Of a stretch of DNA of 46,420 nucleotides, positions 1 through 46,420 are shown piece after piece. The stretch's first letter is position 1, and each line of letters starts with the position of its first letter. Source of the DNA: a virus. The notes beneath the pieces were generated by a model, which was not told the origin of the DNA, made no database searches, and was given only the letters and a program-made list of their open reading frames with translations. The translations under genes were made by a program, and so were the position numbers. Location of the stretch: IMG/VR virus record IMGVR_UViG_3300005253_000023; one strand, written 5' to 3'.

Positions 1-121
1 CCTGCCACTTTAACCCAATGGGTTGACGGGCCTATTTTCTTGTCGTAGACAGCATCAAAAGTGCCTTTGGTGGGATGTTCTATTCGTATCTTATCCCCCT
101 TTACGTACATCGGTTTAAATA
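1..121. repeat. terminal direct repeat, copy 1 (identical to 46300..46420)
   Basis: The first 121 nt equal the last 121 nt base for base. Genes run across the junction. Confidence 0.9.
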
Positions 122-3001: not shown

Positions 3002-3526
3002 TTATAGTTTTTCAAATACAGATTCGGTTAAAATGTCCCTGCATATATTGGCAGTGGTTAGTTCGTTTCGCTTTCTGGCAACCTCATCCGGCTGTGTGCT
3101 TGCATAATAAGAATCAGCATTTGCCTCTGCGCTAGCCTTTGCGGCATAATAGGCAGAATAATAGGAGTCGCCAAAAAGGCAAGAAGCAATATCAGCAGCA
3201 TGAGCAGAAAACTCTGCTGAAGAAGATTCTGCTAATTCACCAGCAGCACCACCCGCTGCACAAGAAACAATAGTAAGTTGCCTATCATCAATCAATCCAT
3301 TACCGTAATCAATAGCGGCGTTTATAGCAGCCTTACTCCGGTCATCTTTCATTAAATGAAGGACGGTTTCAGCACATTTTCCTTTTGCCAAGGTTAACAG
3401 TCTTTTGTTTATATTTAATCTTTGCGCTAACCATAACATCCAATCGCCACTATGAGAAGCTTGCCAAGCTTTTTGCGGAGTGTCAAATCGTCCCATAAAT
3501 TGTGTTATTACTTTCTCCTTAATCAT
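3002..3526 (-). CDS. Ala-rich all-alpha repeat protein, paralog A
   Basis: 174 aa. N- and C-terminal thirds are nearly identical to 3614..4222 (GDWMLW..AQRL...LTLAKGKC.ETVLHLMKDDRSKAA...ARKRN.L..A.ICR.ILTE..FEKL). The centre is A/S/Y-rich. Confidence 0.75.
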   Translation of the reverse strand: MIKEKVITQFMGRFDTPQKAWQASHSGDWMLWLAQRLNINKRLLTLAKGKCAETVLHLMKDDRSKAAINAAIDYGNGLIDDRQLTIVSCAAGGAAGELAESSSAEFSAHAADIASCLFGDSYYSAYYAAKASAEANADSYYASTQPDEVARKRNELTTANICRDILTESVFEKL

Positions 3527-3617
3527 AATTGTAAATTTTCTTCGCCTGTTTCTTCTTTGAGTCAGGAGAATAGATTTTATTGAATTCCTGGAATAGTTCT
3601 GTTAATACTTGGCTCAT
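3519..3617 (-). CDS. small protein (32 aa), cassette partner of paralog A
   Basis: MSQVLTELFQEFNKIYSPDSKKKQAKKIYNYD. ATGA overlap with the upstream stop and ATGATTAA overlap with the downstream start. Confidence 0.4.
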   Translation of the reverse strand: MSQVLTELFQEFNKIYSPDSKKKQAKKIYNYD

Positions 3618-4222
3618 AGTTCTAATTTCTCAAATATCGTTTCCGTTAATATTTCTCTACATATATCGGCAGTCGCTAATTGATTTCTTTTTCTAGCATC
3701 ATCAGCAGCAGCATAAGCATCATCAGCAGCAGCATAAGCATCATAAGCAGCAGCATCATCAGCAGCAGCAGCATCATCATAAGCAGCAGCATAAGCAGCA
3801 TAAGCAGCATAAGCATCATAAGCAGCAGCATCATCAGCAGCAGCATCATCATAAGCAGCAGCATAAGCAGCATAAGCAGCATAAGCATCATAAGCAGCAG
3901 CATCATCAGCAGCAGCAGCATCATAAGCAGCAGCACTTAATTGATCACCATCAATCAACCCATTTCCATAATCTATTGCGGCTTTTACGGCTGCTTTACT
4001 GCGGTCATCCTTCATTAAATGGAGAACCGTTTCAACACATTTGCCTTTTGCTAGAGTTAAAATACGCTTATCAACTTTCAACCTTTGGGCTATCCATAGC
4101 ATCCAATCACCGCGAGGGCAATTTTGCCAGGATTCTTCAAATGTTTTGAACTTCTCCCTGAATTCCACAGCCTCACTACAAGGATTAAATTTTGCAATTT
4201 CTATTTTTTTAGTTATAGTCAT
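3614..4222 (-). CDS. Ala/Asp/Tyr tandem-repeat protein, paralog B
   Basis: Start set to the ATG at 4222 (MTITKK), an ATGA overlap with 4219..4398. The central ~85 aa consist only of A, D and Y. Confidence 0.75.
   Translation of the reverse strand: MTITKKIEIAKFNPCSEAVEFREKFKTFEESWQNCPRGDWMLWIAQRLKVDKRILTLAKGKCVETVLHLMKDDRSKAAVKAAIDYGNGLIDGDQLSAAAYDAAAADDAAAYDAYAAYAAYAAAYDDAAADDAAAYDAYAAYAAYAAAYDDAAAADDAAAYDAYAAADDAYAAADDARKRNQLATADICREILTETIFEKLEL
3695..3935. repeat. GCA/GCATAA/GCATCA microsatellite-like coding array with a perfect 72-bp tandem duplication
   Basis: 3771..3842 is identical to 3843..3914. Several frames are open across the array, which produces the spurious ORFs 3676..3936 and 3680..3940. 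Confidence 0.9.
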
Positions 4223-4398
4223 AATTCTAAATTTTCTTCGCCTTGATGCTCTAATAAATAATCCCGCTTTTCTGCTATCGCTATCCATAAAGGGTAAGCA
4301 GTTTCGTTGTCTGGCTGGCCGTCTTCGTCAAAGGGGTAATATCTCTCATGGTAAACCATCCCTGACTTTTCAAGCTCTGCTATTACTTCTTCGGTCAT
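4219..4398 (-). CDS. small acidic protein (59 aa)
   Basis: MTEEVIAELEKSGMVYHERYYPFDEDGQ... TAATG overlap with the upstream stop and ATGA overlap with the downstream start. Just under the ORF-track cutoff. Confidence 0.5.
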   Translation of the reverse strand: MTEEVIAELEKSGMVYHERYYPFDEDGQPDNETAYPLWIAIAEKRDYLLEHQGEENLEL

Positions 4399-4754: not shown

Positions 4755-4776
4755 AATCGTCTGTATTAGTACACAA

Positions 4777-4799
4777 CGAAGGTACAAAACATATTTGTA
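4777..4799 (-). promoter_or_regulatory. promoter/operator box: TACAAA-N5-TTTGTA + TACCTTCG
   Basis: The minus strand reads TACAAATATGTTTTGTACCTTCG, 22 nt upstream of the ATG at 4754. Confidence 0.55.
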
Positions 4800-4848
4800 A
4801 TAACCTAATCAGGTTAGTTTATTCCCAAGAAAGTATAGAGATTTATTT

Positions 4849-5118
4849 TTATGCCGCTGTCTCTATAGGCTTTGGAGTAAGCCCCGACCATCGGTAACTA
4901 GTCCTAAAAAATTCATCACATTTTTCAACGACTTCCATCTTAACAAAAGTGTGGGAATGTGTTTTACGATTAAATTGATAAAAGGAAGTTGGCTCTACAT
5001 TGATAGCTTTAGCGATACTATGCCGTGATATTTTAGAAAGTGGCGTAGACTTTTCCAAAATGAATGTCTCTATCCACCGATCAAACTCTTTAGCGTCTAC
5101 GTATTTTACTTCTGGCAT
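4849..5118 (-). CDS. putative helix-turn-helix regulator
   Basis: Start at the ATG at 5118 (MPEVKY). LSKISRHSIAKAINVEPTSFYQF looks like an HTH. This is a single-gene unit bracketed by two promoter boxes. Confidence 0.45.
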   Translation of the reverse strand: MPEVKYVDAKEFDRWIETFILEKSTPLSKISRHSIAKAINVEPTSFYQFNRKTHSHTFVKMEVVEKCDEFFRTSYRWSGLTPKPIETAA

Positions 5119-5122
5119 ATTA

Positions 5123-5146
5123 CAAAGGTACAAATATTTATTGTAA
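5123..5146 (-). promoter_or_regulatory. promoter box TTACAA-N6-TTTGTA + TACCTTTG, 4 nt from the ATG
   Basis: The minus strand reads TTACAATAAATATTTGTACCTTTG-TAAT-ATG. TACCTTTG fits TAnnTTTG. Predicts a leaderless mRNA. Confidence 0.5.
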
Positions 5147-5149
5147 TTT

Positions 5150-5467
5150 CTATAACAAGAGTATCAATACTAACAACACTCCCTCAATAGTGGCAATTTT
5201 AATCCAGCGATTACGCTTTTTATTGCCTAGCTTCTTTTCCTTTTTAATCTGCTGACCCTGAAGATCAATAATTGTGTCCCTTTTATGGACTTCAATCTTT
5301 AAATCCTGGGCTATAAGAATAGTCTTTGAGTAATTCTCTTTAATATCACGGCATGAGTCGTTCCCAGGCTGCGATAATACTGTCCTGCTCGTTAGCATCA
5401 ATATCAGAATTCCAATGATGGAAAATAATCTTGTCAGGCTCTTTAGTCTCAATCTTCTTAATTTCAT
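5150..5467 (-). CDS. membrane protein with N-terminal signal/TM and C-terminal TM (spanin-like candidate); start uncertain
   Basis: MKLRRLRLKSLTRLFSIIGILILML..., a charged middle, and a C-terminal IATIEGVLLVLILLL. Starts inside 5346..5573 in the +1 frame. Confidence 0.4.
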   Translation of the reverse strand: MKLRRLRLKSLTRLFSIIGILILMLTSRTVLSQPGNDSCRDIKENYSKTILIAQDLKIEVHKRDTIIDLQGQQIKKEKKLGNKKRNRWIKIATIEGVLLVLILLL

Positions 5468-7633: not shown

Positions 7634-7653
7634 AATATATTTATTATACCCTA

Positions 7654-7676
7654 CGAAGTTACAAAATAACTTTGTA
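7654..7676 (-). promoter_or_regulatory. promoter/operator box: TACAAA-N5-TTTGTA + TAACTTCG
   Basis: The minus strand reads TACAAAGTTATTTTGTAACTTCG, 20 nt upstream of the ATG at 7633. Shares its palindrome with the divergent plus-strand promoter. Confidence 0.5.
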
Positions 7677-7700
7677 TTAAGCAAATGTTTCTTATCTTTG
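7671..7700 (+). promoter_or_regulatory. Bacteroidota-type promoter: TTTG-N18-TATCTTTG
   Basis: TTTG (7671..7674), an 18-nt spacer, then TATCTTTG (7693..7700), with the ATG 4 nt downstream at 7705. Confidence 0.55.
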
Positions 7701-9237: not shown

Positions 9238-9575
9238 TGAAAAAAAAGAAAATTGACATTCCTATTTATGGTGGTGACTTGACAATATACCATTCTAAAA
9301 CTCTAAAATACGTAAGGAAAAAACACAAGCTTGTTTCTACGAATGGATTTGATGCAATTACATTCAGAACCTATGCAAAAAATGGCTATGCACGTTATTA
9401 TTTAGCTTTTAAAAAAGATGTAGATGCTGGGATTATTGCGCATGAAGCTTTACATATAGTATCTTTTATTTTTCAGGACTACAAAATAAAATTTCAATTA
9501 AAAAATGATGAACCTCAATGTTACTTATTAGAGTGGATTGTTAAACAAGTACATGAATTTATAGATGAAAAATAA
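9237..9575 (+). CDS. small HExxH putative zinc metallopeptidase
   Basis: IIAHEALHIV motif with a downstream NDEPQ glutamate. 112 aa. Confidence 0.5.
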   Translation: MKKKKIDIPIYGGDLTIYHSKTLKYVRKKHKLVSTNGFDAITFRTYAKNGYARYYLAFKKDVDAGIIAHEALHIVSFIFQDYKIKFQLKNDEPQCYLLEWIVKQVHEFIDEK

Positions 9576-9706
9576 AATAAAATTTCCTATTGTCAAGACT
9601 TACTCATCCGATCCTATCTTTAATACAAATTAGAATACTCTTGCACAATATCCCATAATAGATTTTAGCTTGTTGATCCTTAAGAAATGATTGTAAACAC
9701 AAAAAT

Positions 9707-9814
9707 ATGAACAACAACCATGAGTGCGCACACATTACTTTCCCGACCGGGAATGTGGCTGCTGGCGACCCTACAGACGTAAAAGTGTTTACGGAAGGGA
9801 AAGACAGGTTGTAG
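9707..9814 (+). CDS. small ORF (35 aa) in a locally GC-rich patch
   Basis: MNNNHECAHITFPTGNVAAGDPTDVKVFTEGKDRL. No recognisable family. Ends at the promoter box. Confidence 0.2.
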   Translation: MNNNHECAHITFPTGNVAAGDPTDVKVFTEGKDRL

Positions 9815-9816
9815 AT

Positions 9817-9839
9817 TACAACTAAATTTTGTATATTCG
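9817..9839 (+). promoter_or_regulatory. promoter/operator box on the plus strand: TACAAC-N5-TTTGTA + TATATTCG
   Basis: TACAACTAAATTTTGTATATTCG. Its 3' part matches the minus-strand copy at 33156..33178 (ATTTTGTATATTCGC). Confidence 0.45.
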
Positions 9840-9888
9840 CTGTGTTCTTTGCTATTAGTGAGGAATATTGTTATATTTAAATAAAATC

Positions 9889-9915
9889 AGCCCATCAAAA
9901 CCTGGTGGGCTTTTG
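9889..9915 (+). terminator. intrinsic terminator hairpin
   Basis: AGCCCA-tcaaaacctgg-TGGGCT followed by TTTTG. It lies between the 9817 box and the ATG at 9927. Confidence 0.55.
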
Positions 9916-13018: not shown

Positions 13019-16000
13019 TCAAAATGCTTTAGCCTCTACAAGCCCCGGTGTTGTGGACTTATCATCAGGGACAACCGTATCCACAACATTATCTACTGAA
13101 CCGTCTTTGGAATTTAGGTCTATAAATCTAAAATTATTATTTGTCTGATCTACTGCAATAATCTCAGTTGCTGATTTTATAAAGCTACCCAAATGAAGTT
13201 CACCAAACCTAACCACACTACCCGTACCATCAACATGGCCATCAATTCCTGCTGCTGCCTGGAATGGTGATTCTACCGTCCAGTTTGCCGCCGCCGGGAC
13301 TGATATATTATCGGGTGTGCATACCCTGAATATTTCATTAGAACCGAATAGAGTTGCCCTCTGCCCTATCCACAAGGTAGGATTATTGTTAGAATCTTCT
13401 TCCAATATCTCAAGCTCTTCATTTGCTTGGAAACGTGCTGTAGCACCATCACCGTCTATATTGCCTGAAGCAGCATTATCTCCCAGTATTACCGTTCCTG
13501 TCCATTGGTTTACAAAGTCGGCTACCGTAGCTATCGCATCTGTTTGCAGGTTTCCATTGTAAATATATCGTTCTATGTTTCCTCCCCTGTTTGCTATTCC
13601 TGAACCATCGCCCCTATTTTGCAAGTAAACCCTGCCTATAGAATCTGATACGCAAGTAGAAAGTCCCGAATGTCCCGGTAATGCATTAGTTAAAGTTCGC
13701 TTCCATATAGCACCATCAAACCACGCTACAGATAGCTCATTACCGAATGCTGCTGTTATCAGTACTGGCTTGCCGTTTTCCCTTCGCCCCTCTATAATGG
13801 CTATATCTGCATTAACACCGCCGCCCACACCCGTTATAATCACCGTTGCTGTCCATCCTACACCTGCATTTTTGACCATCTCAAATACCTGACCGGTATT
13901 AAAACGATGACAATAGATTACAGGCTGCCCGTTAATTACGTCTAACTGATCTACTGCCAGCCCTTGAGGTGCACCTATAATAGCGATTACCTCAGAATCA
14001 TTGATTTCCCTGAATGTATTATCAATAAATGTCATCACCCTGACTCTTGAATTGGACTGATCAGCAACAACAACGGTATTTTCAGAAGCTAACAATAATT
14101 TAGCATGGCCAGGCCCGAACCAACGAGAGCTTATATGGAAGATAGGCACATCAATAGTATCTAAATTACTTTCTACGTTTGTTGGATCAAGGAAGCTACC
14201 TGTCACTTTCCATGCAATAGCTACTTGAATAATTGAGTTGTAAGCATCATGCACATCGTTTTTATCATAAACTATGTTAGACGGTGGTATGTCCGTTACA
14301 TCGCCTGCAAAGGCATTTTGAATATCTGTTTTTAATGCGCCCGAAAGTCCAGATAAAACACCTTGTGAGAAATCAAATGTTCCTATTATATCGCCATTAT
14401 CTTCCGTAAATCGCCATAGCTCATCAAGCAAATTAATATCCGTTATGGCTGGATCATCACGACGAACGATTATTGTAGTGGTAGCAGTCGGATCATTACG
14501 ATAATCTGTTGCCCCTGTTGGATCGCTGGCTTGATCTGTAATGATCTCTGCTGCCAGACCGTCCGTATTGTCGGCTGTTATATCGTATACTGGCAGTGGT
14601 ATAAGTGTAGGCTCATTCCATGTCCTGTAACCCAAACGATAACAACGATCATCTTCTAACCTTGTATGATCTATCAGGCATTCAGTAACAAATGTTAGGT
14701 CATTAGCAGTAAAGCCTACGAATACTAAAAAGTCTTCACCGTCTTTAGGGATTAGCAAGTTATTAGGCGGTGGGTCACGGAATGTTGATAACTCCCAATT
14801 GTTAAATGTGCCGTCTATCTCCTGAATTCTGTGAGCAGCCGTTTGTGGTAGTGCCGGAATCGGTGCTATCCCCTTGGCCCATGTTGTCCTGTATAGGGTA
14901 TTTGCATCCCTTGAAATTCCTGCATCAATACCCACTCCAAACGAAATTGTTCCTGCTTCGTTAAATGTTTCTACTGTTGCCGTCCATCCCGGGTCTAGCG
15001 GTGGTGCTTCGTCCCTATTGAGTAAATTAATGGTGTTTGACTTGTGGCGGTAGGTAGTTACCGAATTTCCTTCTGTAATCCCGGCTTCTAAAAATATCCT
15101 TATCTCATAACCCTCTTTTAGTGAATAGCGGCTTATATTATTATTGAGTCCGTCATTCTCTTCAGCAGCATCGTAAAATACTGTATCTGCACCGTCAAGC
15201 GCAAGCCAGTCTTGCCAATTGGCTTTCCATGCTATTGTTCCTTCTATTGGTTGACGATTTGATACCCTTGCTTGACCCGTTAAAGTCACTTCATTGAACT
15301 GGTCATCTACATTTAAATTAAAGCCCCGTGTAGTATCTAAGGTTATCTGTTGCGTGGTAAATCCCCCGTCTTGCGTAAAAACAGAATTAAAAACGTAGAC
15401 AAAATTTTGAAGCTCAAAGAATTCTTCTGTCGTTGGGTTAAACGCTACTAATCTAAAGGTCATTGAATCCAACAGAGCATCAAGATCAAGGCTTAATTCA
15501 CCCGTAAATTTTGTTAATATCCCATCTTCAATCCATCCTTTATAATCTGTAAATCCCGCTGTTGTCTTTTCAAAAGTATGTGGATAATGTACAACTTCGG
15601 TATAAGCCCAAAGCCCGGGAATATCTGCATTAATCACATATTCGTCCCGATCTATCTCTACAATTTCTTCATCAGAGGTATCTACTGTCGTCGTTTGGTC
15701 TTCTACCGATACTGAGATGAGAAATTCAGCACCTTCTTCTATTAGTGCTTGTTGTGCCGTGGAATATTCAAGAATTACTTCTATCGCTACATTATTGGCA
15801 TCAATTAAAGAACTATTTAAATTTGTTATGATACCGCCAAAAGCTACCGCTGATCCTATCACAACGCTATGTGAGTCTGATAACCATATTTCATCATAAT
15901 TACCTGTTTGGTCGGTATACTCTGCATCCGTTGGCAGTTTGCTAACATAAAACACGTACCTCGTAGCTGCCGTTACCAATGTGCCATTATCGCTGGTAAG

Positions 16001-26914: not shown

Positions 26915-27943
26915 CTATACTAATGCGAATGCCAAAAGAGAAGTTTCACCGGCAACCGTCAGTGGTGTATCGTGAAAAGCCAAGTCAAGTGATAGCTCCC
27001 ATTCTGTTTTGGTATCCTGTTTTACTGAATTAGTTGCTGTTCCATCAAATCGTTCTACATAAGTATGCAGAGCGTAAGACAGACCATCTACAGGATTGAT
27101 CATGGTTGAATAAACATCTTCAGGAGTTACCCTACCTTCCCTGTTTTGGCGTGGTATCCATGTGTTTACACCTACAGACCCGTCCTGAATAGCTATCCAT
27201 GCACCTAAGCTGTAAGCAGAAACAAGAGCACCAAACAACGGGCCTAATTCAGGGGATCGTACAAACGTAATTCCTTCATTTTGGAAGGATAAGTTTGTAG
27301 AGTTAGAATTGCCCTGTTGGAGGTCTTTTTCAAACCTGTTGAAAGAAGTCTCATCGCAATAGAATGTATAACTTGGTGAGTAAGCATTAAGATCAAGAAT
27401 AGATTTGGTAATCTGTACAGCACGTTCTCCATTTGTACTGTTTGTGATCTCAAAGGTATCTTCAACAACATCAAAAGTCCCTTCGTTTGATCCCTGATCA
27501 AAGTCTACTGTATTTCTGTTGTTGAATAGATGGTTGATAGCTAATGTCTCAAAGCCATTCATAAAGGCTTTAATACAATTGTCAACGCCTGTATCAAATT
27601 CATCTGCCTGAGTAAAGAAATTGTTATCCATTCTCTTTAGTGAGGTCTGGAATTCAGATGTGCGAGTAACCCAACTGAGGGTTAATAGACTTGAATCCCC
27701 TACTGGGCCAGTATGATTAAATAATCGTTCCGTTCCCAAAGCAGGTGGATCACTGGCGCGAAAATTCGCCTCTACAGCACGATCTTCACGTGTTCTTACT
27801 GAGTTGTCGGGAACAAAGAAGTTCTGATTCTGTAAGAAATTCAGATACGTTGCTGGTCGTCTGAAGCGCAATTCATTTGCTTGAAACCTGTTTATCAATC
27901 TAACTTGCGCGGTTTTTAGATCGGTGGTTGTAAAATCTGCCAT
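26915..27943 (-). CDS. major capsid protein candidate
   Basis: 342 aa, immediately downstream of the scaffold-like gene, with its own leader. Call by synteny. Confidence 0.55.
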   Translation of the reverse strand: MADFTTTDLKTAQVRLINRFQANELRFRRPATYLNFLQNQNFFVPDNSVRTREDRAVEANFRASDPPALGTERLFNHTGPVGDSSLLTLSWVTRTSEFQTSLKRMDNNFFTQADEFDTGVDNCIKAFMNGFETLAINHLFNNRNTVDFDQGSNEGTFDVVEDTFEITNSTNGERAVQITKSILDLNAYSPSYTFYCDETSFNRFEKDLQQGNSNSTNLSFQNEGITFVRSPELGPLFGALVSAYSLGAWIAIQDGSVGVNTWIPRQNREGRVTPEDVYSTMINPVDGLSYALHTYVERFDGTATNSVKQDTKTEWELSLDLAFHDTPLTVAGETSLLAFALV

Positions 27944-27979
27944 TTGATTAATTATTAGATAGTTAGAAAATACCTCTAA

Positions 27980-28067
27980 GCTACCGCTTAATTAATCCCT
28001 GCCAGCTACCGCCAGTCAAATGATTTAGAGAAGTGTTGGCTACCGCCTATATCTTATCAGCTACCGC
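27980..28067 (-). repeat. four direct copies of GGCGGTAGCY (minus-strand sense) in the capsid-gene leader
   Basis: Plus-strand GCTACCGC at 27980..27987, 28005..28012, 28039..28046 and 28060..28067. The region is non-coding. Confidence 0.85.
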
Positions 28068-28076
28068 CGATTATTG

Positions 28077-28084
28077 CAAAAGTA
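28077..28084 (-). promoter_or_regulatory. -7-type promoter box TACTTTTG
   Basis: Fits TAnnTTTG. Sits just after the scaffold stop and upstream of the repeat array. Confidence 0.35.
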
Positions 28085-28905: not shown

Positions 28906-29380
28906 AATTGATATTGTTTTGGTCTAATAATTCAGTGAGTTTGGGTTCTTTTGCTAGGTGATGATATTTGATTTTATGCTTATCAAGTAAAGCTTTCATC
29001 TCTTGCAATGTTGCCGAAGGCGATTCGGCTTCCGCTTCTTTAATCTTGTTCACATCCGGGATGTTGCGCTCAGGCATAGGCACATGATCCGCCAAAGCAT
29101 CATTCAATACGTGCTTCAGTACATTGCCTTTCAATAGCTCATCGCTTTCTTTTTGGGCTTTCCTTTTACGCATCTTTGCCTCTCCGTCTACATAATACTT
29201 GTTAGTGGCCTCTTCATCTATCTCATAAATCTTACCACCATTTACCCAATTTGCATTGGTTTGCTCATACCATTCTTTCGTAATTTTTGCCGCTGGCATC
29301 AGTAATGTTTTGTGTTCTTTGGTGAATCCTTTCTCATTTCTGAAAAGTTGATAGTGCCGACATACATAAATTTCATTCAT
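28895..29380 (-). CDS. hypothetical protein
   Basis: 161-aa ORF overlapping both neighbours. Confidence 0.6.
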   Translation of the reverse strand: MNEIYVCRHYQLFRNEKGFTKEHKTLLMPAAKITKEWYEQTNANWVNGGKIYEIDEEATNKYYVDGEAKMRKRKAQKESDELLKGNVLKHVLNDALADHVPMPERNIPDVNKIKEAEAESPSATLQEMKALLDKHKIKYHHLAKEPKLTELLDQNNINYAH

Positions 29381-31016
29381 CGCTATTTTTTATTTGATTA
29401 GTTTCAAACCAGCTATCAAAGCTGGCCTTTAATTCTTTTTCTGTTGATTTGAAGACAAAATCCTTGCTTTGTTCTTCCCACCAGTCGCGAAACTGTACTT
29501 TTTTTCGTGCTTGCTTCTGGTTAAATATCTCTCCCACCTGTTCGGCTGTGTAATGAAGATACGGCTCTATGTTTGATTTTTTCACCAACACATTCAGCCA
29601 AATAGGATCGTTGTGGAATTTGGCCGTGATCCATTCGTTATATAACCTATCAAGGATTACCGTACTGTCTCCCTTGTCTTTAGACATCTCATAACGCTTA
29701 AGGATCATATCGCTTGACTCAATGATATATCGCCTGCCGTAGGCTATAAGTGCCGCATTTTCTTCTTTGTCGCGTGTTGGCTGCAAGAAATCTGCAATGA
29801 AATTGGTAATCTGCAATTCCATAAACTCCGTAGTAGATGAATAGAAGTCTAGCTTATTTTCCAAAGGCTGTTTGTTCATTATCACAATTTCTGTTGCAGT
29901 TTTATTGGTGATCCTGTCTTCAGATACCCCTATAACAGTACCCCAATGAGTAACACTAGCCATATCCTGAAGTAATTCAAGCTCTTTTGTAAACTGATCC
30001 CAGGCATCAATATCAGGTGATACAAAGCCCATAATATTAGGTGCAAGGACAGTTTCATTCGCTTGGGGTATTTTAAGACGTATAACATCTGTTACATCAT
30101 TGGTAACAAGCCATCCTTTACCATTACAGTTCTTACATGACTCTGATGATGCGCCTGATTTGCCCGTTCCTTTACACATCGCACAGCCCATCTCATAACG
30201 CCACATCTTAGGAAATCCCTGTTGAAATTTAAAGATCGTCTTAATAGACTGATCACGGGCATATTCCCTGCTCAACTCTACTACTGATCTGATCGGTGAT
30301 TCCTTAAATTCTTCACCAACCTTTTGAATATTAGAATTAACAATTCCCGGTACACGTGAAAAAGGATGTTCAAAGGTATGTTCCTGGTCTACGGTAAAAG
30401 TATCACCTGATTCAATGATAGTATAATCCTTTTCGTCGTCTACCAATCGCCATAATTTTGCACCTTCTGGTAACACTTTAGGTTCAAACAATAGTAAATG
30501 AATGCGTTGTCCTATTACCCTGTACGTTTTTATTGATCCTATTGACTTATAAGTAGGGTAAACATCATCTACGCCGTGAATCTCTTCAGTTGTATATTCC
30601 ATGAAGACGATGCCATTCGGATCAGTATGATAAACCCTCATCCACTGGGTTTGTAGCCATTCTTCTATTGACTTATCACCGCGAAGATTCATGGTTTTGG
30701 CTATCAATTCAGCTTTGTCATCGTCGTTTTCAATAAGATACTTACGACTACCCCCGGTTGCTGAAAATACGTTATCAACAGGTGTTAACAGCCTTTGGTA
30801 GAAATCAACAATAGATCGTGAATATTTACGTCTTGATTTGGATTTAGACTCAGATTCCAGGTGCTCAATACGAAGAATGAGTTCTTCTAAGAATCCATCA
30901 CCTTCAATTAATGCGTTTAGCGTTTTTGATTGTTTGCGTGCTTCAATAATAAACGGATCATTGCCTTGATGGGCTTTAACAAAGTCTATCGCTGCTTGAT
31001 CGTCTACAAATACCAC
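29373..31016 (-). CDS. portal protein candidate with an embedded DnaJ-type zinc finger
   Basis: 547 aa, GTG start. Size and position (upstream of scaffold and capsid). CAMCKGTG-x8-CKNCNGKG motif. Confidence 0.45.
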   Translation of the reverse strand: MVFVDDQAAIDFVKAHQGNDPFIIEARKQSKTLNALIEGDGFLEELILRIEHLESESKSKSRRKYSRSIVDFYQRLLTPVDNVFSATGGSRKYLIENDDDKAELIAKTMNLRGDKSIEEWLQTQWMRVYHTDPNGIVFMEYTTEEIHGVDDVYPTYKSIGSIKTYRVIGQRIHLLLFEPKVLPEGAKLWRLVDDEKDYTIIESGDTFTVDQEHTFEHPFSRVPGIVNSNIQKVGEEFKESPIRSVVELSREYARDQSIKTIFKFQQGFPKMWRYEMGCAMCKGTGKSGASSESCKNCNGKGWLVTNDVTDVIRLKIPQANETVLAPNIMGFVSPDIDAWDQFTKELELLQDMASVTHWGTVIGVSEDRITNKTATEIVIMNKQPLENKLDFYSSTTEFMELQITNFIADFLQPTRDKEENAALIAYGRRYIIESSDMILKRYEMSKDKGDSTVILDRLYNEWITAKFHNDPIWLNVLVKKSNIEPYLHYTAEQVGEIFNQKQARKKVQFRDWWEEQSKDFVFKSTEKELKASFDSWFETNQIKNSDE

Positions 31017-33132: not shown

Positions 33133-33155
33133 AGCTATCTTTAATGTTCATACTG

Positions 33156-33178
33156 CGAATATACAAAATATCTTTGTA
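33156..33178 (-). promoter_or_regulatory. promoter/operator box: TACAAA-N5-TTTGTA + TATATTCG
   Basis: The minus strand reads TACAAAGATATTTTGTATATTCG, 23 nt upstream of the ATG at 33132. Confidence 0.5.
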
Positions 33179-33189
33179 CTAACCAAGAA

Positions 33190-33685: not shown

Positions 33686-34042
33686 CTAATCTTTAATTAC
33701 GGTTTCATCTTTCAAAGTTAGTTCTTCGTTTGTAAGGGCATAGTAAAGGTTTTGGACTTGGTGGACATATTTGATCTCCATTCCAGTATGATAAAAATAA
33801 TAACCCTTTCGTTGTTCTTTAATGCTTATTCTATCCTTGGTGTAGCTGTGCGTTTTTTTGACAAACCCAAACTTCTCCAACCATTCTTTGGTGAGGGGGA
33901 TTGCCCTACATTTCATATTCCCGTGTTCAATTTGAACCAAATCTTCTGCATCCTCTATTTGCGTTTCAAATCCATAGGTTCTTTCTGTTTCACCATATTC
34001 AAAATCTACCCAATTGCCAATTCTAAGTTCTTGTGATTTCAT
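33686..34042 (-). CDS. hypothetical protein
   Basis: 118-aa ORF. Confidence 0.6.
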   Translation of the reverse strand: MKSQELRIGNWVDFEYGETERTYGFETQIEDAEDLVQIEHGNMKCRAIPLTKEWLEKFGFVKKTHSYTKDRISIKEQRKGYYFYHTGMEIKYVHQVQNLYYALTNEELTLKDETVIKD

Positions 34043-34122
34043 AGTTTCATTCCAAATATACTACCATAAGTCCATTTTCTAGTATCTCTTCGTTTCCCTC
34101 TAAATTTTATTTCCCGTCCCAT
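34039..34122 (-). pseudogene. 27-codon ORF resembling only the N-terminus of YopX-type phage proteins
   Basis: MGREIKFRGKRRDTRKWTYGSIFGMKL, then a stop in an ATGA overlap. YopX-like proteins normally continue for more than 100 aa. Confidence 0.3.
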
Positions 34123-34159
34123 TTCTTATATCGTTTAGTTACACAGTGCATTACTGCTA

Positions 34160-34453
34160 TTAATAATTCCATTTACTTTTAATAATTCTGTACCCGTTAG
34201 CTTTTAACAAAGTAACCAGTTCGTTAGCGCAAATAGTACAAAGTTCCATTTCTTCTGTCTGGCCGTCCCCTGATCCAGGGTATCTAAACCCCTGCACAAG
34301 TTCAAATGTAAACTCATCGGCACTATGGCTGCCGTGTGCTATCTTTTCTTCGCATTTATCGCATTCATGAAATCTCTCCTTCTCAACCTCAGATTCATGG
34401 GCTGGGATAATTTCTTCTGGAACTAGTAATTTCTCTTTTATAGTTACTTGCAT
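34160..34453 (-). CDS. zinc-ribbon protein
   Basis: HECDKCEEK...ELCTICANEL (CxxC...CxxC). First gene after the structured leader. Confidence 0.6.
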   Translation of the reverse strand: MQVTIKEKLLVPEEIIPAHESEVEKERFHECDKCEEKIAHGSHSADEFTFELVQGFRYPGSGDGQTEEMELCTICANELVTLLKANGYRIIKSKWNY

Positions 34454-34467
34454 AATCGTTGTTTAAA

Positions 34468-34633
34468 AGTGGTTGGAGCAGGATTTTATACCCGCATGGT
34501 TCAGTCGGTTTTACTTTGGGAACAGATTGTTACATCCTATTAATCAAAGCACACTCCCCAGTGTTGGAGGAAGGCCGAGAACGAATCCCATATTTACCAT
34601 AACTCCTTTCTCGCCTTTTTATATCCAACCACT
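34468..34633 (-). promoter_or_regulatory. structured ~166-nt 5' leader closed by a perfect 10-bp helix
   Basis: AGTGGTTGGA (34468..34477) is the exact reverse complement of TCCAACCACT (34624..34633). Internal hairpins CGAGAA/TTCTCG and ACACT-GGGG-AGTGT. Locally GC-rich. Confidence 0.45.
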
Positions 34634-34636
34634 CTA

Positions 34637-34659
34637 CGAAGGTACAAAACTAATTTGTA
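34637..34659 (-). promoter_or_regulatory. promoter/operator box: TACAAA-N5-TTTGTA + TACCTTCG
   Basis: The minus strand reads TACAAATTAGTTTTGTACCTTCG. Lies directly after the terminator and 3 nt before the leader helix. Confidence 0.55.
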
Positions 34660-34673
34660 ATATGCAAGCAACA

Positions 34674-34705
34674 AAAAAGCCCACCTATTAAGATGGGCTT
34701 TTTAA
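34674..34705 (-). terminator. strong intrinsic terminator (bidirectional geometry)
   Basis: The minus strand reads AGCCCATC-TTAATA-GGTGGGCT followed by TTTTTT. An A-run precedes it. Confidence 0.75.
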
Positions 34706-34735
34706 TTATTCTCATATCTCAGAGCGGTAGCCTTA
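34674..34735 (-). ncRNA. candidate ~60-nt sRNA (or terL 3'UTR-derived RNA) carrying GGCUACCGCU
   Basis: A TATATTTG box (reverse complement of 34740..34747) lies upstream and the terminator hairpin closes the 3' end. No ORF. Confidence 0.3.
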
Positions 34736-35083
34736 TTCACAAATATACTACTTTTTTTGCAGGCCATTTATGGTTCACTAAATATCTTTTGGGCCATATC
34801 TGTATGATTGTGGCCTATAAAAGCAAAAACCGCCAAGTCTGTCTCCCTTGACGATTTCGTTTCTCCTTTGACACTTGGTCAACGAGATATACAACATTAT
34901 CCCCACATCTGCCAAAGGCAAATAAAAACATGCTCCACCCTTTGCCGACCAATATTGACTAAGGTTTTTAACTTATTGATTATCAACCATGGACCTCAAA
35001 CAGCTATTTTTAATCGTTTTTACTTTAATTAACATTGTTAAATCATTGATAATAAGGAATATAAACCATGGTCCAGATAGGAC

Positions 35084-36391
35084 CTACCCCCACATCATTA
35101 CACTGCTAGGCTGTAATTCAAACCATTCACGCATCATAATACTGTCCCATTCGTCAGGAGAACGCCCGATATTGGCCTTTACATCCTCTTTGGGTACTAC
35201 TCTCAATTTTCCGTCCTTGTCTATGTCACGCTGCTTGACCTGCTCCATTTCCTGAATGATCCTTTCTCGTAACCCCACATCAGTACATTCTTCATACACT
35301 TCTTTACGTGTGATCCTGCCAGCCATTTTGAAGGTACACTGTGCTTTTAAACTATCGTAATTTACCGATTGTCCTTGCTCATCTAAGGCTCTAGAGTTAT
35401 TGACGAACCCTTTACATTCTAATATATCTACAACTCCCGATCCGATCCCATCCTCATCCACTATCACCTGACTCATGGGTACTTTGTACATATTGGCAAG
35501 CTTCCTGATTTCTGCCGCCGATTCAGTGATTAATGATATCTTCATCTCCTTGCGATCTATCACCGTAAACCCATCCCAGACACGTATAATCGTGCTGTCA
35601 CGGCCTTTTCTTGCTATGTCGGCGGTAATGTAGTCTTCGCCCGGTTCAACGTGCTGATTCTTAAAGTAATCTTCAATTGAATCCCGGTCAATTAATGTTC
35701 GCGGGTCGTCGTCGTACTCCCATTCACCAAAAAGCAATCGTTGTTTGCTGATCTCATCTAGTGTCAGTAAGTTCTCCCGGTAATGTTCTGAGATATACGG
35801 ATTGTCAGATAAGAGAGCTTGTACAAACTTTCTATATTCGGGCAAAGTACCGTCCTTCCAAGGCTTATAGAACCGTGAATACACCCAGTTCTTAGTAGGA
35901 TTACAGCTACCTAATATCTTCGGTGTAAGCCCATATTCATCCAGCCTATACCTGATCCTTGACTTAACGATGTTCCACCCTTTTTCGTCTATCTGATTGA
36001 CCTCATCCAAGAATGCCCCGGTAATCTCTAATGATCCAAGTTCATCATAATGTGGATCGCTAGGATAATGAAATAAGTCTTTGAGAAGGATCTCACTACC
36101 ATTGGAATAATAAATAGTGCTTTTCTGTTGGTTGTAATCGTGAATATTAGGGTCAAGGTCTAACTTTTTGAATATGTCAAAATAGGTGTTTAGAGTAGTT
36201 TCCTTGAGTGTTTTAAGCCTTGACCTACCCATTAGCCATCTAGTGCCTGGAAAGCGTGTACAGCGATCTATGAGCCACAATGAACCAAGAGAACTTTTCG
36301 CGCCACCTGCTCCGCCTCCGAAAAGTATTTCAGTCGTTGTCTTGTCGGCGAGATACTTGGTGGCTACGGTCTGCTTTTTGGTGAGCTTCAT
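35084..36391 (-). CDS. terL: terminase large subunit
   Basis: N-terminal Walker A FGGGAGGAKS. 435 aa with terminase-like organisation. Adjacent to TerS and HNH. Confidence 0.85.
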   Translation of the reverse strand: MKLTKKQTVATKYLADKTTTEILFGGGAGGAKSSLGSLWLIDRCTRFPGTRWLMGRSRLKTLKETTLNTYFDIFKKLDLDPNIHDYNQQKSTIYYSNGSEILLKDLFHYPSDPHYDELGSLEITGAFLDEVNQIDEKGWNIVKSRIRYRLDEYGLTPKILGSCNPTKNWVYSRFYKPWKDGTLPEYRKFVQALLSDNPYISEHYRENLLTLDEISKQRLLFGEWEYDDDPRTLIDRDSIEDYFKNQHVEPGEDYITADIARKGRDSTIIRVWDGFTVIDRKEMKISLITESAAEIRKLANMYKVPMSQVIVDEDGIGSGVVDILECKGFVNNSRALDEQGQSVNYDSLKAQCTFKMAGRITRKEVYEECTDVGLRERIIQEMEQVKQRDIDKDGKLRVVPKEDVKANIGRSPDEWDSIMMREWFELQPSSVMMWG

Positions 36392-36401
36392 TCATTATTT
36401 C

Positions 36402-36653
36402 CTAATTCTTATGGGCATCAAGATAAAATCTGTCATACAGATTATTTATTCTGATCTTAATTTCACTGATTCTTAAAATAGCACGTTCACAGTCGGTCGG
36501 CATTGATTGATATGGTGGTATAAGATGGCCACCTTCTACATTATCAAGTATTGATTTATATAATGCTCTTATGTAATCTAAATCACGAAATGTAGCCTCT
36601 AAAGAAGTAGACCATTCTTGAAAATCCGTAGTTTTTTTTATATTATTCTTCAT
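36402..36653 (-). CDS. hypothetical protein
   Basis: 83-aa ORF between TerS and TerL. Confidence 0.55.
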   Translation of the reverse strand: MKNNIKKTTDFQEWSTSLEATFRDLDYIRALYKSILDNVEGGHLIPPYQSMPTDCERAILRISEIKIRINNLYDRFYLDAHKN

Positions 36654-36990
36654 CAGGTATCACATGGATGGTTATTGGCTTGCCGCCTGTAGTATGATCA
36701 ATTTCTTTCTTGTCAGCCCATCCAAAACGATTGCGCATATTCATATAAAACAGGGTTGCATTAAACTTAGGGTTTTCAAGGTTTTCCCGTGCATTTTTCA
36801 TCCACCAGCCTAGTGAAAAGTCTGTCCCTCTTTTTTTAGCGTGTAATAACTCATCGTGTTTCTTACACCAGTTGTAGAAAGTCTTCTTCGCAACATTCAG
36901 TTCAAGACATATTTCCTCAATAGAATATCCTTGCTTCATAAAGGAAACTACTTTATCAGGAATATCTTCTGAATATTTACTTGGCCTCAT
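36643..36990 (-). CDS. terS: terminase small subunit
   Basis: PSKYSEDIPDKVVSFMKQGYSIEEICLELNVAKKTFYNWCKKHDEL...FYMNMRNRFGWADK: an HTH-type small terminase pattern. Confidence 0.65.
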   Translation of the reverse strand: MRPSKYSEDIPDKVVSFMKQGYSIEEICLELNVAKKTFYNWCKKHDELLHAKKRGTDFSLGWWMKNARENLENPKFNATLFYMNMRNRFGWADKKEIDHTTGGKPITIHVIPDEE

Positions 36991-37525
36991 AGATGGAATC
37001 CTTTTTAGACATATTAGTACTAGGCTGTAATAATTGTATATTACTTGATGTATGTGTTCCTCCTTTAGATAGTGGAATTACGTGGTCTAAGTGATAGTTG
37101 CCATTACTTATATCTTTACCACTTATTGCGCATTTATAATTCTGTTCTTTTAACAGATGTATAATAAATCCCCCCGTCACTGTGCCATCTGAAGTTGATC
37201 TTTTTTTTGACCTTCTTTCTTGATTCACAGCCTTTACAAGCGCCTTACCTTCTTCAGAATTATACCGCTCCCTTTTATATGTGTTGATAGCATCCTTATT
37301 ATTTAAGTAATACTCTCTCATTTTGATAGCATATTTAGGATTGCTATTCTTTAGTAGCCTATACTTATCCCGGGTATCCCAATAAAATTTTGATTGACAA
37401 ACTTTACACGGTGACTGATGCCCCGATTTTGCCCTTTTATCTTTATTAAAAAATTCAACACTTTTCAATAGGCCACACTTTGTACAAACTTTTTGTCCAT
37501 TAACTATTAAAGGGGGTCTGGGCAT
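36977..37525 (-). CDS. HNH endonuclease (terminase-associated)
   Basis: YHLDHVIPLSKGGTHTSSNIQLL motif with N-terminal Cys pairs. Confidence 0.8.
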   Translation of the reverse strand: MPRPPLIVNGQKVCTKCGLLKSVEFFNKDKRAKSGHQSPCKVCQSKFYWDTRDKYRLLKNSNPKYAIKMREYYLNNKDAINTYKRERYNSEEGKALVKAVNQERRSKKRSTSDGTVTGGFIIHLLKEQNYKCAISGKDISNGNYHLDHVIPLSKGGTHTSSNIQLLQPSTNMSKKDSIYEAK

Positions 37526-40356: not shown

Positions 40357-40374
40357 AATCGTCTTATTATAACA

Positions 40375-40397
40375 CAAAGGTACAAATAAGTTTTGTA
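40375..40397 (-). promoter_or_regulatory. promoter/operator box: TACAAA-N5-TTTGTA + TACCTTTG
   Basis: The minus strand reads TACAAAACTTATTTGTACCTTTG, 18 nt upstream of the ATG at 40356. Confidence 0.55.
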
Positions 40398-40479
40398 AAT
40401 ACCTAATTGGTTATTTAAATGGAAAACATTATATTTGTAGAATAGCATATAAGTTATATGTATAGTTAAAAATAAAATC

Positions 40480-42482: not shown

Positions 42483-42673
42483 GACAATTTTTTCATGATT
42501 AATTTCGTCAGCTTCTTATTTAATTCCTTTTTGCAATTAAAACTAAATATTTCCTTAAGGTTGTCGGTTCTGACCGTGCCAGATAAATCACTACATGTAC
42601 AGATTATAAGCGGGTAATCGCTTTCTCCAGTTAACTCATCCAAAATAGCTAGTTTTCTTAATATCTTTTTCAT
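42479..42673 (-). CDS. hypothetical protein
   Basis: 64-aa ORF with ATGA overlaps on both sides. Confidence 0.55.
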   Translation of the reverse strand: MKKILRKLAILDELTGESDYPLIICTCSDLSGTVRTDNLKEIFSFNCKKELNKKLTKLIMKKLS

Positions 42674-43442: not shown

Positions 43443-43952
43443 TTAAAAACCTTCGTATTTTAATTTGTACTCTCCTTCTTTATTAAAACCTATGCCATTA
43501 ATTGAATAGTCATAAGTATATATTTCAAAAATTAAAGTATTAGAATTTAGCAGGAAATCAACCAGATATATAATATCATCGTCCATATTAACATCAGAAC
43601 CAATACAGATAATTTTATATGTAACAGGATATTTGAATTCTCTTTTTTCTAAATAATTCCTGATTCCTTTAATATATCTAAGGGCTTGTAAAAAAGTATT
43701 TGTACTAACTAAATCCTTTTTTAATTCATAAACTGTAATAGTAGCAGGTATTGCATGTTCTTTTTTAATATTCCATCGTGGCCTTTCAAACGTAATTACA
43801 TCAGCAATCCCATAAGCTCCTATTTTGAATTGCCTGAATATTTTATTAGGATAATAAATAGGGAATCCTTTATTTATAAGGTTTTCAATTGATTCCTTAT
43901 CTTTGATATTGTCCCAGATAATATCTTCCAAATCTTTTTCTAAGAACTTCAT
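43443..43952 (-). CDS. PD-(D/E)XK nuclease-like protein (NucS/DUF91-like)
   Basis: Start at the ATG at 43952 (MKFLEKDLEDIIW). GIADVITFE...TVYELKK resembles a D...ExK core. Confidence 0.45.
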   Translation of the reverse strand: MKFLEKDLEDIIWDNIKDKESIENLINKGFPIYYPNKIFRQFKIGAYGIADVITFERPRWNIKKEHAIPATITVYELKKDLVSTNTFLQALRYIKGIRNYLEKREFKYPVTYKIICIGSDVNMDDDIIYLVDFLLNSNTLIFEIYTYDYSINGIGFNKEGEYKLKYEGF

Positions 43953-43977
43953 AATATAAAAGCCTACTAAAAAGGTT

Positions 43978-44054
43978 GTGACAAAACGATGCAAGAAAGT
44001 TTTTACCTTCCGTTCGGCTTAATTTTTATGTTCAAATGATTTTCGTTTCGTCAC
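43978..44054 (-). promoter_or_regulatory. 5' leader clamp: 12-bp helix (one G:U) enclosing 53 nt
   Basis: Minus-strand GUGACGAAACGA (44043..44054) pairs with UCGUUUUGUCAC (43978..43989). The 5' arm starts 4 nt after the TATATTTG box. Confidence 0.4.
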
Positions 44055-44077
44055 ATTACAAATATAGTCTTTTATTC
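44054..44077 (-). promoter_or_regulatory. 24-nt exact repeat containing a TATATTTG box (copy 1)
   Basis: CATTACAAATATAGTCTTTTATTC is identical to 45603..45626. The reverse complement contains TAnnTTTG. Confidence 0.5.
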
Positions 44078-45067: not shown

Positions 45068-45481
45068 CTATTCTACTGTATTTGTTATCCTGGTTTTTGC
45101 TTCTAGGATAGGCAAGTTTGCTTCTGTTGGTATGTAAATCTTATCACCATCCATTTTGTCAATATTTCTAACCCATAAATATTGTATATACTTATCAGTT
45201 AATTTCCCATCTTCTATCTCAATAGCTATCGCCATTCCCTTTGCGCGTTCAACTTCTGCCTGACTATTTAATTTTTGAGATTCTAAATTTGCCTTTGCTT
45301 CTTCAATAAGAATCTTTCTATTTTGTTCTGCTTTTGCCATTTCAGCACGCCCAAAATTTTCAGCACTTTCAATCTTAACCTTTGACCTCCAAACCTGATA
45401 TTTTGGTAAGCCAAACATAGCACACATAATAATAACAATAATCGTAAGCACGATTGTAAAAAACCATCCTAATTCACTCAT
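45068..45481 (-). CDS. membrane-anchored protein with an SPFH/band-7 C-terminal-like region
   Basis: N-terminal TM FFTIVLTIIVIIMCAMFGL. AEMAKAEQNRKILIEEAKANLESQKLNSQAEVERAKGMA helical repeat. Confidence 0.4.
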   Translation of the reverse strand: MSELGWFFTIVLTIIVIIMCAMFGLPKYQVWRSKVKIESAENFGRAEMAKAEQNRKILIEEAKANLESQKLNSQAEVERAKGMAIAIEIEDGKLTDKYIQYLWVRNIDKMDGDKIYIPTEANLPILEAKTRITNTVE

Positions 45482-45522: not shown

Positions 45523-45603
45523 TGCACACTTACCAGGAAGTAAGATGACACGTTTTCGGGGCTATGAAAAAAGTTTTTGTAACATGTCCTGGTCTAAGTG
45601 TGC
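45523..45603 (-). promoter_or_regulatory. 5' leader clamp: imperfect ~15-bp helix with a 2-nt bulge
   Basis: Minus-strand GCACACUUAGACCAGG (45589..45603 region) pairs with CCUGGUAAGUGUGC (45524..45537 region). The 5' arm starts 4 nt after the TATATTTG box. Confidence 0.35.
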
Positions 45604-45626
45604 ATTACAAATATAGTCTTTTATTC
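45603..45626 (-). promoter_or_regulatory. 24-nt exact repeat containing a TATATTTG box (copy 2)
   Basis: Identical to 44054..44077. Lies between the stop of 45631..45945 and the leader of 45068..45481. Confidence 0.5.
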
Positions 45627-46218: not shown

Positions 46219-46409
46219 AATTTCTCTACTTTACACTCTTCAAAATTTATAAATAAAAAATCATCAGGATAGTATGTTTGCTTATTGAGTGTTAGCTTAC
46301 CTGCCACTTTAACCCAATGGGTTGACGGGCCTATTTTCTTGTCGTAGACAGCATCAAAAGTGCCTTTGGTGGGATGTTCTATTCGTATCTTATCCCCCTT
46401 TACGTACAT
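46215..46409 (-). CDS. hypothetical protein (start lies in the terminal repeat)
   Basis: 64-aa ORF. Its ATG (46409, equivalent to 110) overlaps the stop of the DnaA-IV-like gene (101..103) once the genome is circularised. Confidence 0.55.
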   Translation of the reverse strand: MYVKGDKIRIEHPTKGTFDAVYDKKIGPSTHWVKVAGKLTLNKQTYYPDDFLFINFEECKVEKL

Positions 46410-46420
46410 CGGTTTAAATA
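46300..46420. repeat. terminal direct repeat, copy 2 (identical to 1..121)
   Basis: Base-for-base identity with the window start. Confidence 0.9.

Follow-up and report, generated by a model that had tools for sequence, protein, structure and literature searches.

Organisation of the locus

The sequence analysed here, the 46,420-nucleotide (nt) IMG/VR record IMGVR_UViG_3300005253_000023 (hereafter the window), comes from a marine-sediment metagenome (LCGC14). This work concerns two non-coding elements of its minus strand, which carries almost all of the genes: a short promoter-to-terminator unit located behind the terL gene, and an array of hairpins in the leader of the putative major capsid gene, to which the 5' part of the unit is complementary. 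The two ends of the window (1-121 and 46300-46420) are identical over 121 nt, as in a circularly assembled phage genome, which points to a complete genome of ~46.3 kb assembled as a circular or terminally redundant contig. In minus-strand order, the upstream part comprises an HNH endonuclease gene (36977-37525), terS (36643-36990), an open reading frame (ORF) of 83 amino acids (aa) and terL; these are followed by a group of small genes, the portal gene (29373-31016), two genes whose products measure 161 and 271 aa, and the capsid gene. The two genes next to the elements under study are:

35084..36391, minus strand: terL (phrog_979, 1e-27; PF04466), followed by 337 nt free of ORFs before the promoter P1
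26915..27943, minus strand: putative major capsid protein gene (phrog_7231; 25% identity to an annotated major capsid protein)

A first-pass annotation, made from the letters of the sequence, had named three genes that matter here. Its terL label is supported by both the phrog_979 and the PF04466 matches. The capsid label is supported indirectly, phrog_7231 being a 'virion structural protein' family, whereas the 'fibre' label given to a 1305-aa ORF could not be verified, this ORF matching phrog_12056, of unknown function. As for the host, a Maribacter sp. assembly in NCBI holds proteins identical to those of the window, the capsid relatives are binned with Flavobacterium, Lutibacter and Flavobacteriaceae metagenome-assembled genomes, and the distant capsid relatives are prophages of Chitinophaga, Parabacteroides and Prevotellaceae. 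A Bacteroidota host is a reasonable assumption for this uncultured, Flavobacteriaceae-type phage, and the TAnnTTTG promoter type was therefore assumed. Bacteroidota hosts use this unusual promoter type and lack Shine-Dalgarno-led initiation.

The capsid leader carries four hairpins

The first-pass annotation had described a GGCGGUAGCY motif present four times in the capsid leader and once in the 1305-aa ORF, with a single copy, behind terL, in the opposite orientation. An exact genome-wide count agrees: the 8-mer GCTACCGC is present in exactly 6 copies versus 0.30 expected, a number reached by none of 100 shuffles. Four plus-strand copies (27980, 28005, 28039 and 28060) all lie in the 146-nt gap upstream of ORF 26915-27943. 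The others are found at 15843, on the plus strand within the 1305-aa ORF, and at 34724-34731 on the minus strand, the sole copy in the opposite orientation. The copy of the 1305-aa ORF, which is part of AGCGGUAGCU, is probably a chance coding copy. Although the repeat is real, its copies are not the linear sites that had been supposed: each leader copy is predicted to form a stem-loop, in which GGC/GCY and the flanking bases pair (6, 3, 5 and 6 base pairs, bp) around a GGUA tetraloop. The corresponding features are:

28077..28084, minus strand: -7 box of the capsid promoter, TACTTTTG, separated from hairpin 1 by 5 nt
28056..28071, minus strand: leader hairpin 1, AUCGGC-GGUA-GCUGAU, within the covariance-model match 28078..28030
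28038..28047, minus strand: leader hairpin 2, GGC-GGUA-GCC, within the same match (28078..28030)
28002..28015, minus strand: leader hairpin 3, CUGGC-GGUA-GCUGG, aligning with hairpin 1 of the nearest relatives (L201-L203)
27976..27991, minus strand: leader hairpin 4, UAAGC-GGUA-GCUUA, within a weak second covariance-model match
15842..15851, minus strand: AGCGGUAGCU in the 1305-aa ORF, coding (codons Ala-Val-Ala)

A dual-hairpin element is conserved in the capsid leaders of relatives

Relatives were collected starting with capsid homologues of ~50% identity, followed by 80 IMG/VR loci retrieved by a capsid-alignment scan, plus 17 genome loci. Two hairpins placed directly after a TAnnTTTG box were found upstream of the capsid gene in ~70 phage relatives (37-50% capsid identity). 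The box is present in 66 of the 71 distinct relative leaders, with hairpin 1 starting 5-35 nt after it, and nearly all relatives share the same order: terminator, TAnnTTTG box, two small hairpins, and an A-rich stretch up to the capsid ATG. The loops are conserved as CGGUA followed by A, AA, AU, U or UA, and pairing is retained in more than 25 versions of the stems (e.g., GGGC/GCUC, GAGC/GCUC, GGC/GCC and GAC/GUC, as well as GAAC/GUUC, GUC/GAC and GGCU/AGCC). In a MAFFT alignment of 31 leaders, 86% of the cells are paired, compared to 26-41% when the partners were slid, and the covariation score is 0.42, versus 0.135 at most. A covariance-model alignment of 39 leaders gave 87% of paired cells and a covariation score of 0.39, the slid-partner controls over both alignments yielding 24-46% of paired cells. 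As the stems co-vary and G.U pairs are abundant in them, these data indicate that the hairpin array is a sense-strand RNA element, and not a duplex DNA site. Each genome contains a single match to the covariance model, which invariably lies on the sense strand and closely precedes the capsid ATG (44 matches with E < 1e-4).

In the window, hairpins 1 and 2 are covered by a model match at 28078..28030 (30.2 bits), and hairpins 3 and 4 by a weak one at 28023..27952. The core spacings inside these two units, 21 and 25 nt, are those of the relatives, while 34 nt separate the units, and the sequence alignment with the nearest relatives puts hairpins 3 and 4 at the ancestral position. These two observations indicate that the window lineage has doubled a two-hairpin element, yielding two tandem units and four hairpins.

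The same architecture with other loops was observed in distant clades: AGGUUC or AGGCUC; GUGCUA together with GUGUCA; CGU. In Chitinophaga and Flavipsychrobacter prophages (L291, L292, L296 and L300), 3-4 hairpins with AAGAUGC or AGGAUAC loops and G+C-rich stems (e.g., GCCC-AAGAUGC-GGGC) are located 60-170 nt upstream of the capsid ATG. Because loops are alike within a genome and different between clades, they point to a co-evolving reader. At the gathering score, Rfam 15 gave no match in the window or in the leaders of 7 relatives; E-value mode yielded only sub-threshold matches, driven by the terminator hairpin. As judged from these alignments, a family-wide dual-hairpin element of capsid mRNA leaders, present in a large group of uncultured phages and prophages, is newly recognised, and this is the solid result of the present analysis. 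The element can be used now as a marker of capsid promoters and as a handle to find its reader.

Other candidates did not extend this picture. No convincing GGUA-loop hairpin was found at the other promoters of the window, a hairpin at 42608-42623 falling in a small ORF. A scan of the IMG/VR collection for GGCGGTAGC-N(8-38)-GGCGGTAGC returned mostly coding repeats and was uninformative, and a fourfold array of GTCACCGA in the relative L262 turned out to be a coding tandem repeat.

Several capsid loci of relatives carry further RNA genes or motifs. In L250, two tRNAs (Rfam; 5311-5462) separate the capsid promoter from the next gene upstream, and an apparent array of ~5 tRNAs, seen by eye only, occupies the same place in L201 (~9440-9820). 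In L212, a match to the Rfam DUF805b RNA above the gathering score (41.5 bits; 3674-3705, plus strand) lies ~400 nt upstream of the capsid gene. A tRNA/tmRNA scan of the window found none.

A probable promoter and a strong terminator lie behind terL

The unit behind terL and the element that follows it are composed of:

34740..34751, minus strand: promoter P1, GTAGTATATTTG, containing the -7 box TATATTTG (34747..34740), with no -33 TTTG
34723..34732, minus strand: GGCUACCGCU (DNA GGCTACCGCT), reverse complement of the leader hairpin core (stem and GGUA loop), at about +2 to +12 of the P1 transcript
34673..34703, minus strand: intrinsic terminator, A5-AGCCCAUC / UUAAUA / GGUGGGCU-U6, with flanking A and U tracts
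34631..34662, minus strand: promoter/operator-like 32-mer of the TTACAAA-N5-TTTTGTACCTTCG family (7 members), starting 12 nt past the terminator

The TAnnTTTG-consensus box that had been proposed for P1 is present in the sequence. Its -7 element is perfect, and the -33 TTTG, located ~19-21 nt upstream in the consensus, is absent. On the coding strand, all six exact copies of TATATTTG are in non-coding DNA, which represents 6.8% of the genome (a figure that rests on a generous gene call), and the five copies besides P1 stand directly upstream of genes. The 12-mer GTAGTATATTTG recurs 11 nt ahead of the ATG of ORF 33686-34042, and other Bacteroidota phages have near-identical boxes 17 nt upstream of the gene ahead of terL. 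From the non-coding location of all TATATTTG copies, the repetition of the 12-mer before a gene and the similar boxes in other phages, P1 is probably a true, active promoter despite the missing -33 element. The degenerate TAnnTTTG is not enriched genome-wide (69 versus 61 expected), and 15 of its 42 sense-strand copies are non-coding. A paralogy of the P1 region with the capsid promoter and hairpin 1 was rejected, the local alignment score being no better than that of shuffles. Elsewhere in the window, two identical 24-mers (44054-44077 and 45603-45626), which read GAATAAAAGACTATATTTGTAATG on the minus strand and contain the TATATTTG box, are located upstream of ORFs 43443-43994 and 45068-45481, respectively, and look like duplicated promoters.

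The sequence AGCCCATC-TTAATA-GGTGGGCT is found at 34699..34678 on the minus strand, followed by a run of T to 34673. A terminator scan confirmed that this is a strong intrinsic terminator: it recovered a 13-pair stem at 34703..34674, the sole strong terminator within 27-37 kb, made of 8 G+C-rich pairs (13 with the flanking A-U pairs), a 6-nt loop and U6 (fold energy -24.9 kcal/mol, z = -3.4). Given the A and U tracts on its flanks, it is potentially bidirectional. A second strain of ~98% identity, found in three independent samples (L200, L302 and L303) and called strain B hereafter, differs from the window at 5 positions of a 22-nt stretch of the terminator: 3 in the loop and 2 immediately after the U tract, with stem and U tract unchanged. 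By our calculation, the chance that 5 changes placed randomly among 22 positions would all avoid stem and U tract is ~0.002. Since strain B changes only the loop and the nucleotides just past the U tract, these data indicate that the terminator is real and under selection. The only ORF of the unit, 21 aa long and running across the terminator (MRIIKKPILIGGLFCCLHITN), is frameshifted in strain B by a one-base insertion; the promoter-terminator unit is therefore non-coding.

A hairpin with a stem identical to that of the terminator (AGCCCATC/GGTGGGCT) and an AAAACCT loop is present on the plus strand at 9889..9911; at the terL-side site, the loop of strain B is AATAACA. The 9889-9911 hairpin lies 45 nt past the plus-strand copy of the 32-mer family and 22 nt before an ATG at 9933, and may act as an attenuator or as a hairpin of the 5' untranslated region (UTR).

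The interval between terL and the portal gene is variable

The 337 nt between terL and P1 are identical in both strains, and blastx of 34441-35100 revealed no gene remnant when compared with the 28,585 six-frame ORFs from all the loci collected. The strains hardly differ over the whole block 35690-34700, a pattern compatible with recent sharing of the block, and it therefore carries no information on selection acting on the 384-nt spacer, P1 or the seed. A small hairpin, GGUCC-UAUCU-GGACC, overlaps the terL stop codon (35070-35084, minus strand).

On the portal side, strain B is devoid of a 515-bp segment of the window, 34080-34594, which carries ORF 34160-34453 (97 aa, no family match). Since the 8-bp microhomology TTATGGTA stands at both junctions, this segment is best described as a cassette gained or lost by microhomology.

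The element located just past the terminator belongs to a family of ~30 nt, TTACAAA-N5-TTTTGTACCTTCG(T), with 7 copies, each standing just ahead of a gene and containing the inverted repeat TACAAA/TTTGTA. Six are read on the minus strand (4771-4802, 5117-5148, 7648-7679, 33150-33181, 34631-34662 and 40369-40400) and one on the plus strand (9817-9843). These features suggest a promoter class specific to the phage, into which an operator for a dimeric regulator is built.

Complementarity between the unit and the capsid leader

The first-pass annotation had placed a complement of the leader motif in the 5' part of the unit, and this complement, GGCUACCGCU, was indeed found at 34732..34723. It lies at the 5' end of the predicted RNA, in its only open segment, and is by itself a poor hairpin (3 bp including one G.U). 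The 8-10 bp of pairing per site that had been suggested are possible, as 10 bp including G.U can form at each leader copy; however, these sites lie in stems and tetraloops. The net cofold gain with the leader, after subtraction of the unfolding cost, is -15.7 kcal/mol, compared to -5.6 +/- 2.4 for shuffled 5' parts, none of 100 of which reached it, and was equalled by 2 of 200 genomic 32-mers. Among 4636 sense-strand windows ordered by raw duplex energy, the leader comes ~18th (top 0.4%), and several other sites of the genome pair equally well or better. The pairing is thus favourable compared to shuffles but not unique to the leader. The reverse 8-mer is expected ~0.15 times per strand over the whole genome, and TACCG is not enriched in the non-coding sense strand (7 copies, versus 19 for CGGTA, in 33 kb).

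In the 39 GGUA-class relatives, reverse complements of the hairpin core of the same genome occur only within long ORFs, and none is intergenic. Because no relative has such an intergenic complement, the array appears to work family-wide without an RNA partner of this kind. Capsid and terL searches of a set of 5.8 billion proteins found no relative between 61% and ~98% identity, and a metagenome scan for close relatives recovered only strain B. As both partners are identical in the window and in this only close strain, co-variation between them is uninformative. The IMG/VR loci retrieved through terL (54-60% identity) were without both the promoter-terminator unit and the leader element. The antisense complementarity is private to this phage lineage, and is most likely either coincidental or recently acquired. 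A regulatory link between the short RNA and the capsid leader is a hypothesis built on one complementary 10-mer, statistically suggestive and with no comparative support.

A proposed operon end and unrelated hairpin array

The reading we favour, with a probability of about 0.5, is that the terminator marks an ordinary operon end, beside an orphan or accessory promoter, and that the cis-acting hairpin array is unrelated to it. The unit would represent a real punctuation point of transcription, at which the strong terminator 34703..34673 would end the terS-terL operon and would be directly followed by the promoter-like element of the next gene cassette. An operon end is suggested because the promoter-like 32-mer starts 12 nt past the terminator and because relatives show the same succession, terminator then promoter, at the capsid gene. 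The consensus Bacteroidota -7 box, 38 nt upstream of the terminator, would probably fire and yield a ~60-nt non-coding RNA, the 3' end of which would also be produced by read-through from terL. The capsid-leader array would most likely be the recognition site of a loop-specific factor, which would set the stability or translation of the capsid mRNA, or make RNA polymerase resistant to termination. Promoter activity, the existence of the short RNA and any trans factor are inferred here. The small RNA (sRNA) proposed by the first-pass annotation, originating either from P1 or from the 3' UTR of terL, keeps its promoter, its terminator and its non-coding status, whereas capsid targeting is unproven.

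Several points weigh against this reading. If the short RNA had no function, it would be difficult to account for a strong promoter that directly faces a strong terminator. The complement occupies the one unstructured segment of this RNA, at its very 5' end, a position shared by many sRNA seeds. The probability of finding the reverse 8-mer by chance, calculated post hoc, is ~0.01-0.02 for the non-coding sense DNA and ~1e-4 for the 38-nt spacer alone. Finally, the cofold gain beats 100 of 100 shuffles and 198 of 200 genomic 32-mers.

The alternative that survives best, although we consider it unlikely, is a trans-acting antisense sRNA: the ~60-nt P1 RNA would invade the GGUA hairpins through its 5' GGCUACCGCU, starting from a UACC/GGUA contact, at up to four sites. 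By doing so it would destroy the structure read by the loop factor or expose the 5' end, tuning the amount or timing of capsid synthesis. The supported promoter, terminator and non-coding status of the unit are all consistent with such an RNA, as are the 10 bp (including G.U) available at each of four sites, the cofold gain of -15.7 kcal/mol, reached by 0/100 shuffles and 2/200 genomic 32-mers, and the place of the leader in the top 0.4% of sense-strand windows; in addition, the lineage of the window is also the one with a doubled number of hairpins. However, ~40 GGUA-class relatives have no intergenic complement of their own hairpin, so that their array does without such an RNA; in addition, stems sequester the target sequences, and other sites of the genome pair as well or better. 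The two known strains being identical at both partners, the case amounts to a single 10-mer. In its most specific form, in which a ~60-nt sRNA of a Bacteroidota phage, its 5' end an exact complement of the capsid-mRNA hairpins, would melt up to four of them and override a loop-specific control element, the proposal is doubtful. If true, this would be the first sRNA reported from a phage of Bacteroidota; phage morphogenesis would gain a level of RNA-RNA control, with an antisense RNA layered on a protein-read RNA operator and setting the timing or dose of capsid synthesis.

It is likewise doubtful that P1 is a relic, left beside the terminator by the loss of a small-gene cassette, and that the complementarity is pure chance. 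Cassette gain and loss are concentrated in the interval between terL and portal, where relatives differ widely in gene content and strain B lacks 34080-34594, with TTATGGTA at the junction. A relic is nonetheless hard to reconcile with a terminator that is still under selection, no coding remnant was found, and the 337-nt ORF-free stretch upstream would be left unexplained.

Less credible still is a regulated leader or attenuator, in which P1 transcripts would normally stop at the terminator, like the 6S RNA of lambda PR'-tR', and would read through, with an antitermination factor, into the variable small-gene cassette and the portal gene, the short RNA being a by-product. The layout fits (promoter, ~40 nt, strong terminator and genes on the same strand), and the identical stem of the 9889-9911 hairpin is flanked by a promoter-like 32-mer and the start of a gene, whose expression requires read-through. 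However, promoter-like elements belonging to the downstream genes themselves lie past the terminator (34662..34631 and 34064..34053), which makes read-through from P1 unnecessary; moreover, no antiterminator gene was present among the ORFs scanned and no alternative anti-terminator fold was evident.

Finally, GCGGTAGC might be a double-stranded site for a phage transcription factor, acting at both promoters in either orientation, as at each of them a -7 box precedes the start of the 8-mer by 8-9 nt; this reading is very unlikely and was rejected on account of stems that co-vary with G.U pairs, since stem bases vary in relatives with pairing kept and only the loop conserved, G.U pairs, which are common, would be A-C mismatches on the other strand, and the 34724 copy would show the wrong loop.

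Comparison with known RNA regulators

The leader and the unit behind terL can be compared with several characterised RNAs. The targets of the ANTAR regulators EutV, NasR and AmiR consist of two tandem mini-hairpins in a 5' leader, with short variable stems, conserved loops and variable spacing; they are read by a dimeric RNA-binding regulator, their hexaloops have A1 and G4, and hairpin 2 competes with a terminator (PMC3369931). The capsid leader resembles them in its two tandem short hairpins with like loops. It differs in that (i) its loop sequences, GGUA, GGUAA(N) or GGUAU(A), have G as the first base and A as the fourth, (ii) no terminator overlaps its hairpin 2, an A-rich unstructured stretch leading to the ATG instead, and (iii) there is neither an ANTAR protein among the ORFs scanned nor an Rfam match.

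The lambda nut/boxB sites, recognised with N, and the HK022 put sites are promoter-proximal antitermination RNAs, put being composed of two adjacent stem-loops that act on RNA polymerase. Like them, the leader hairpins are small, come immediately behind a phage promoter and open a long operon; in contrast, the leader has no boxA-like element or GNRA-like pentaloop, and the put stems are much longer. To our knowledge, no N-like protein has been described in phages of this type. In T7, the gene 10 leader provides a highly expressed phage mRNA with a stabilising stem-loop at its 5' terminus. The capsid leader shares with it a hairpin at the 5' end of a major capsid mRNA that has its own strong promoter; however, a pure stabiliser would not need a loop that is conserved between both hairpins and clade-specific.

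Phage antisense RNAs with multi-site leaders are represented by the P4 CI RNA (seqB versus seqA and seqC) and by the P1/P7 c4 RNA (two sites ahead of ant). The short complementary stretch of a small phage RNA, able to pair with repeated leader sites, is common to these systems and to the unit behind terL. Whereas the CI and c4 RNAs are cut from the transcript that bears their targets and control immunity genes, the present unit is separate, 6.7 kb away, and would face the leader of a structural gene. Finally, 3'UTR-derived and stand-alone sRNAs, in enterobacteria as well as of the Bacteroides GibS type, have seeds at the 5' end and a Rho-independent terminator. The predicted short RNA has the same build, with an unstructured 5' seed, a terminator hairpin and a U tail within ~60 nt and with its own promoter or an origin in the upstream mRNA, but it has no homology to any Rfam sRNA, its sub-threshold matches being terminator-driven. 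We know of no work on late-gene control in phages of Flavobacteriia or other Bacteroidota.

Repeats elsewhere in the window

Independently of the elements described above, ORF 3614-4288 contains a dense periodic repeat of 9/12/15 nt at 3659-3968 and is 73% similar to the neighbouring ORF 3002-3526. The region 3238-3474 is similar to 3901-4137, and an exact duplication of 63 nt (2925-2987 and 3540-3602) is found in the same region; the two ORFs appear to be paralogous genes for repeat-containing proteins.

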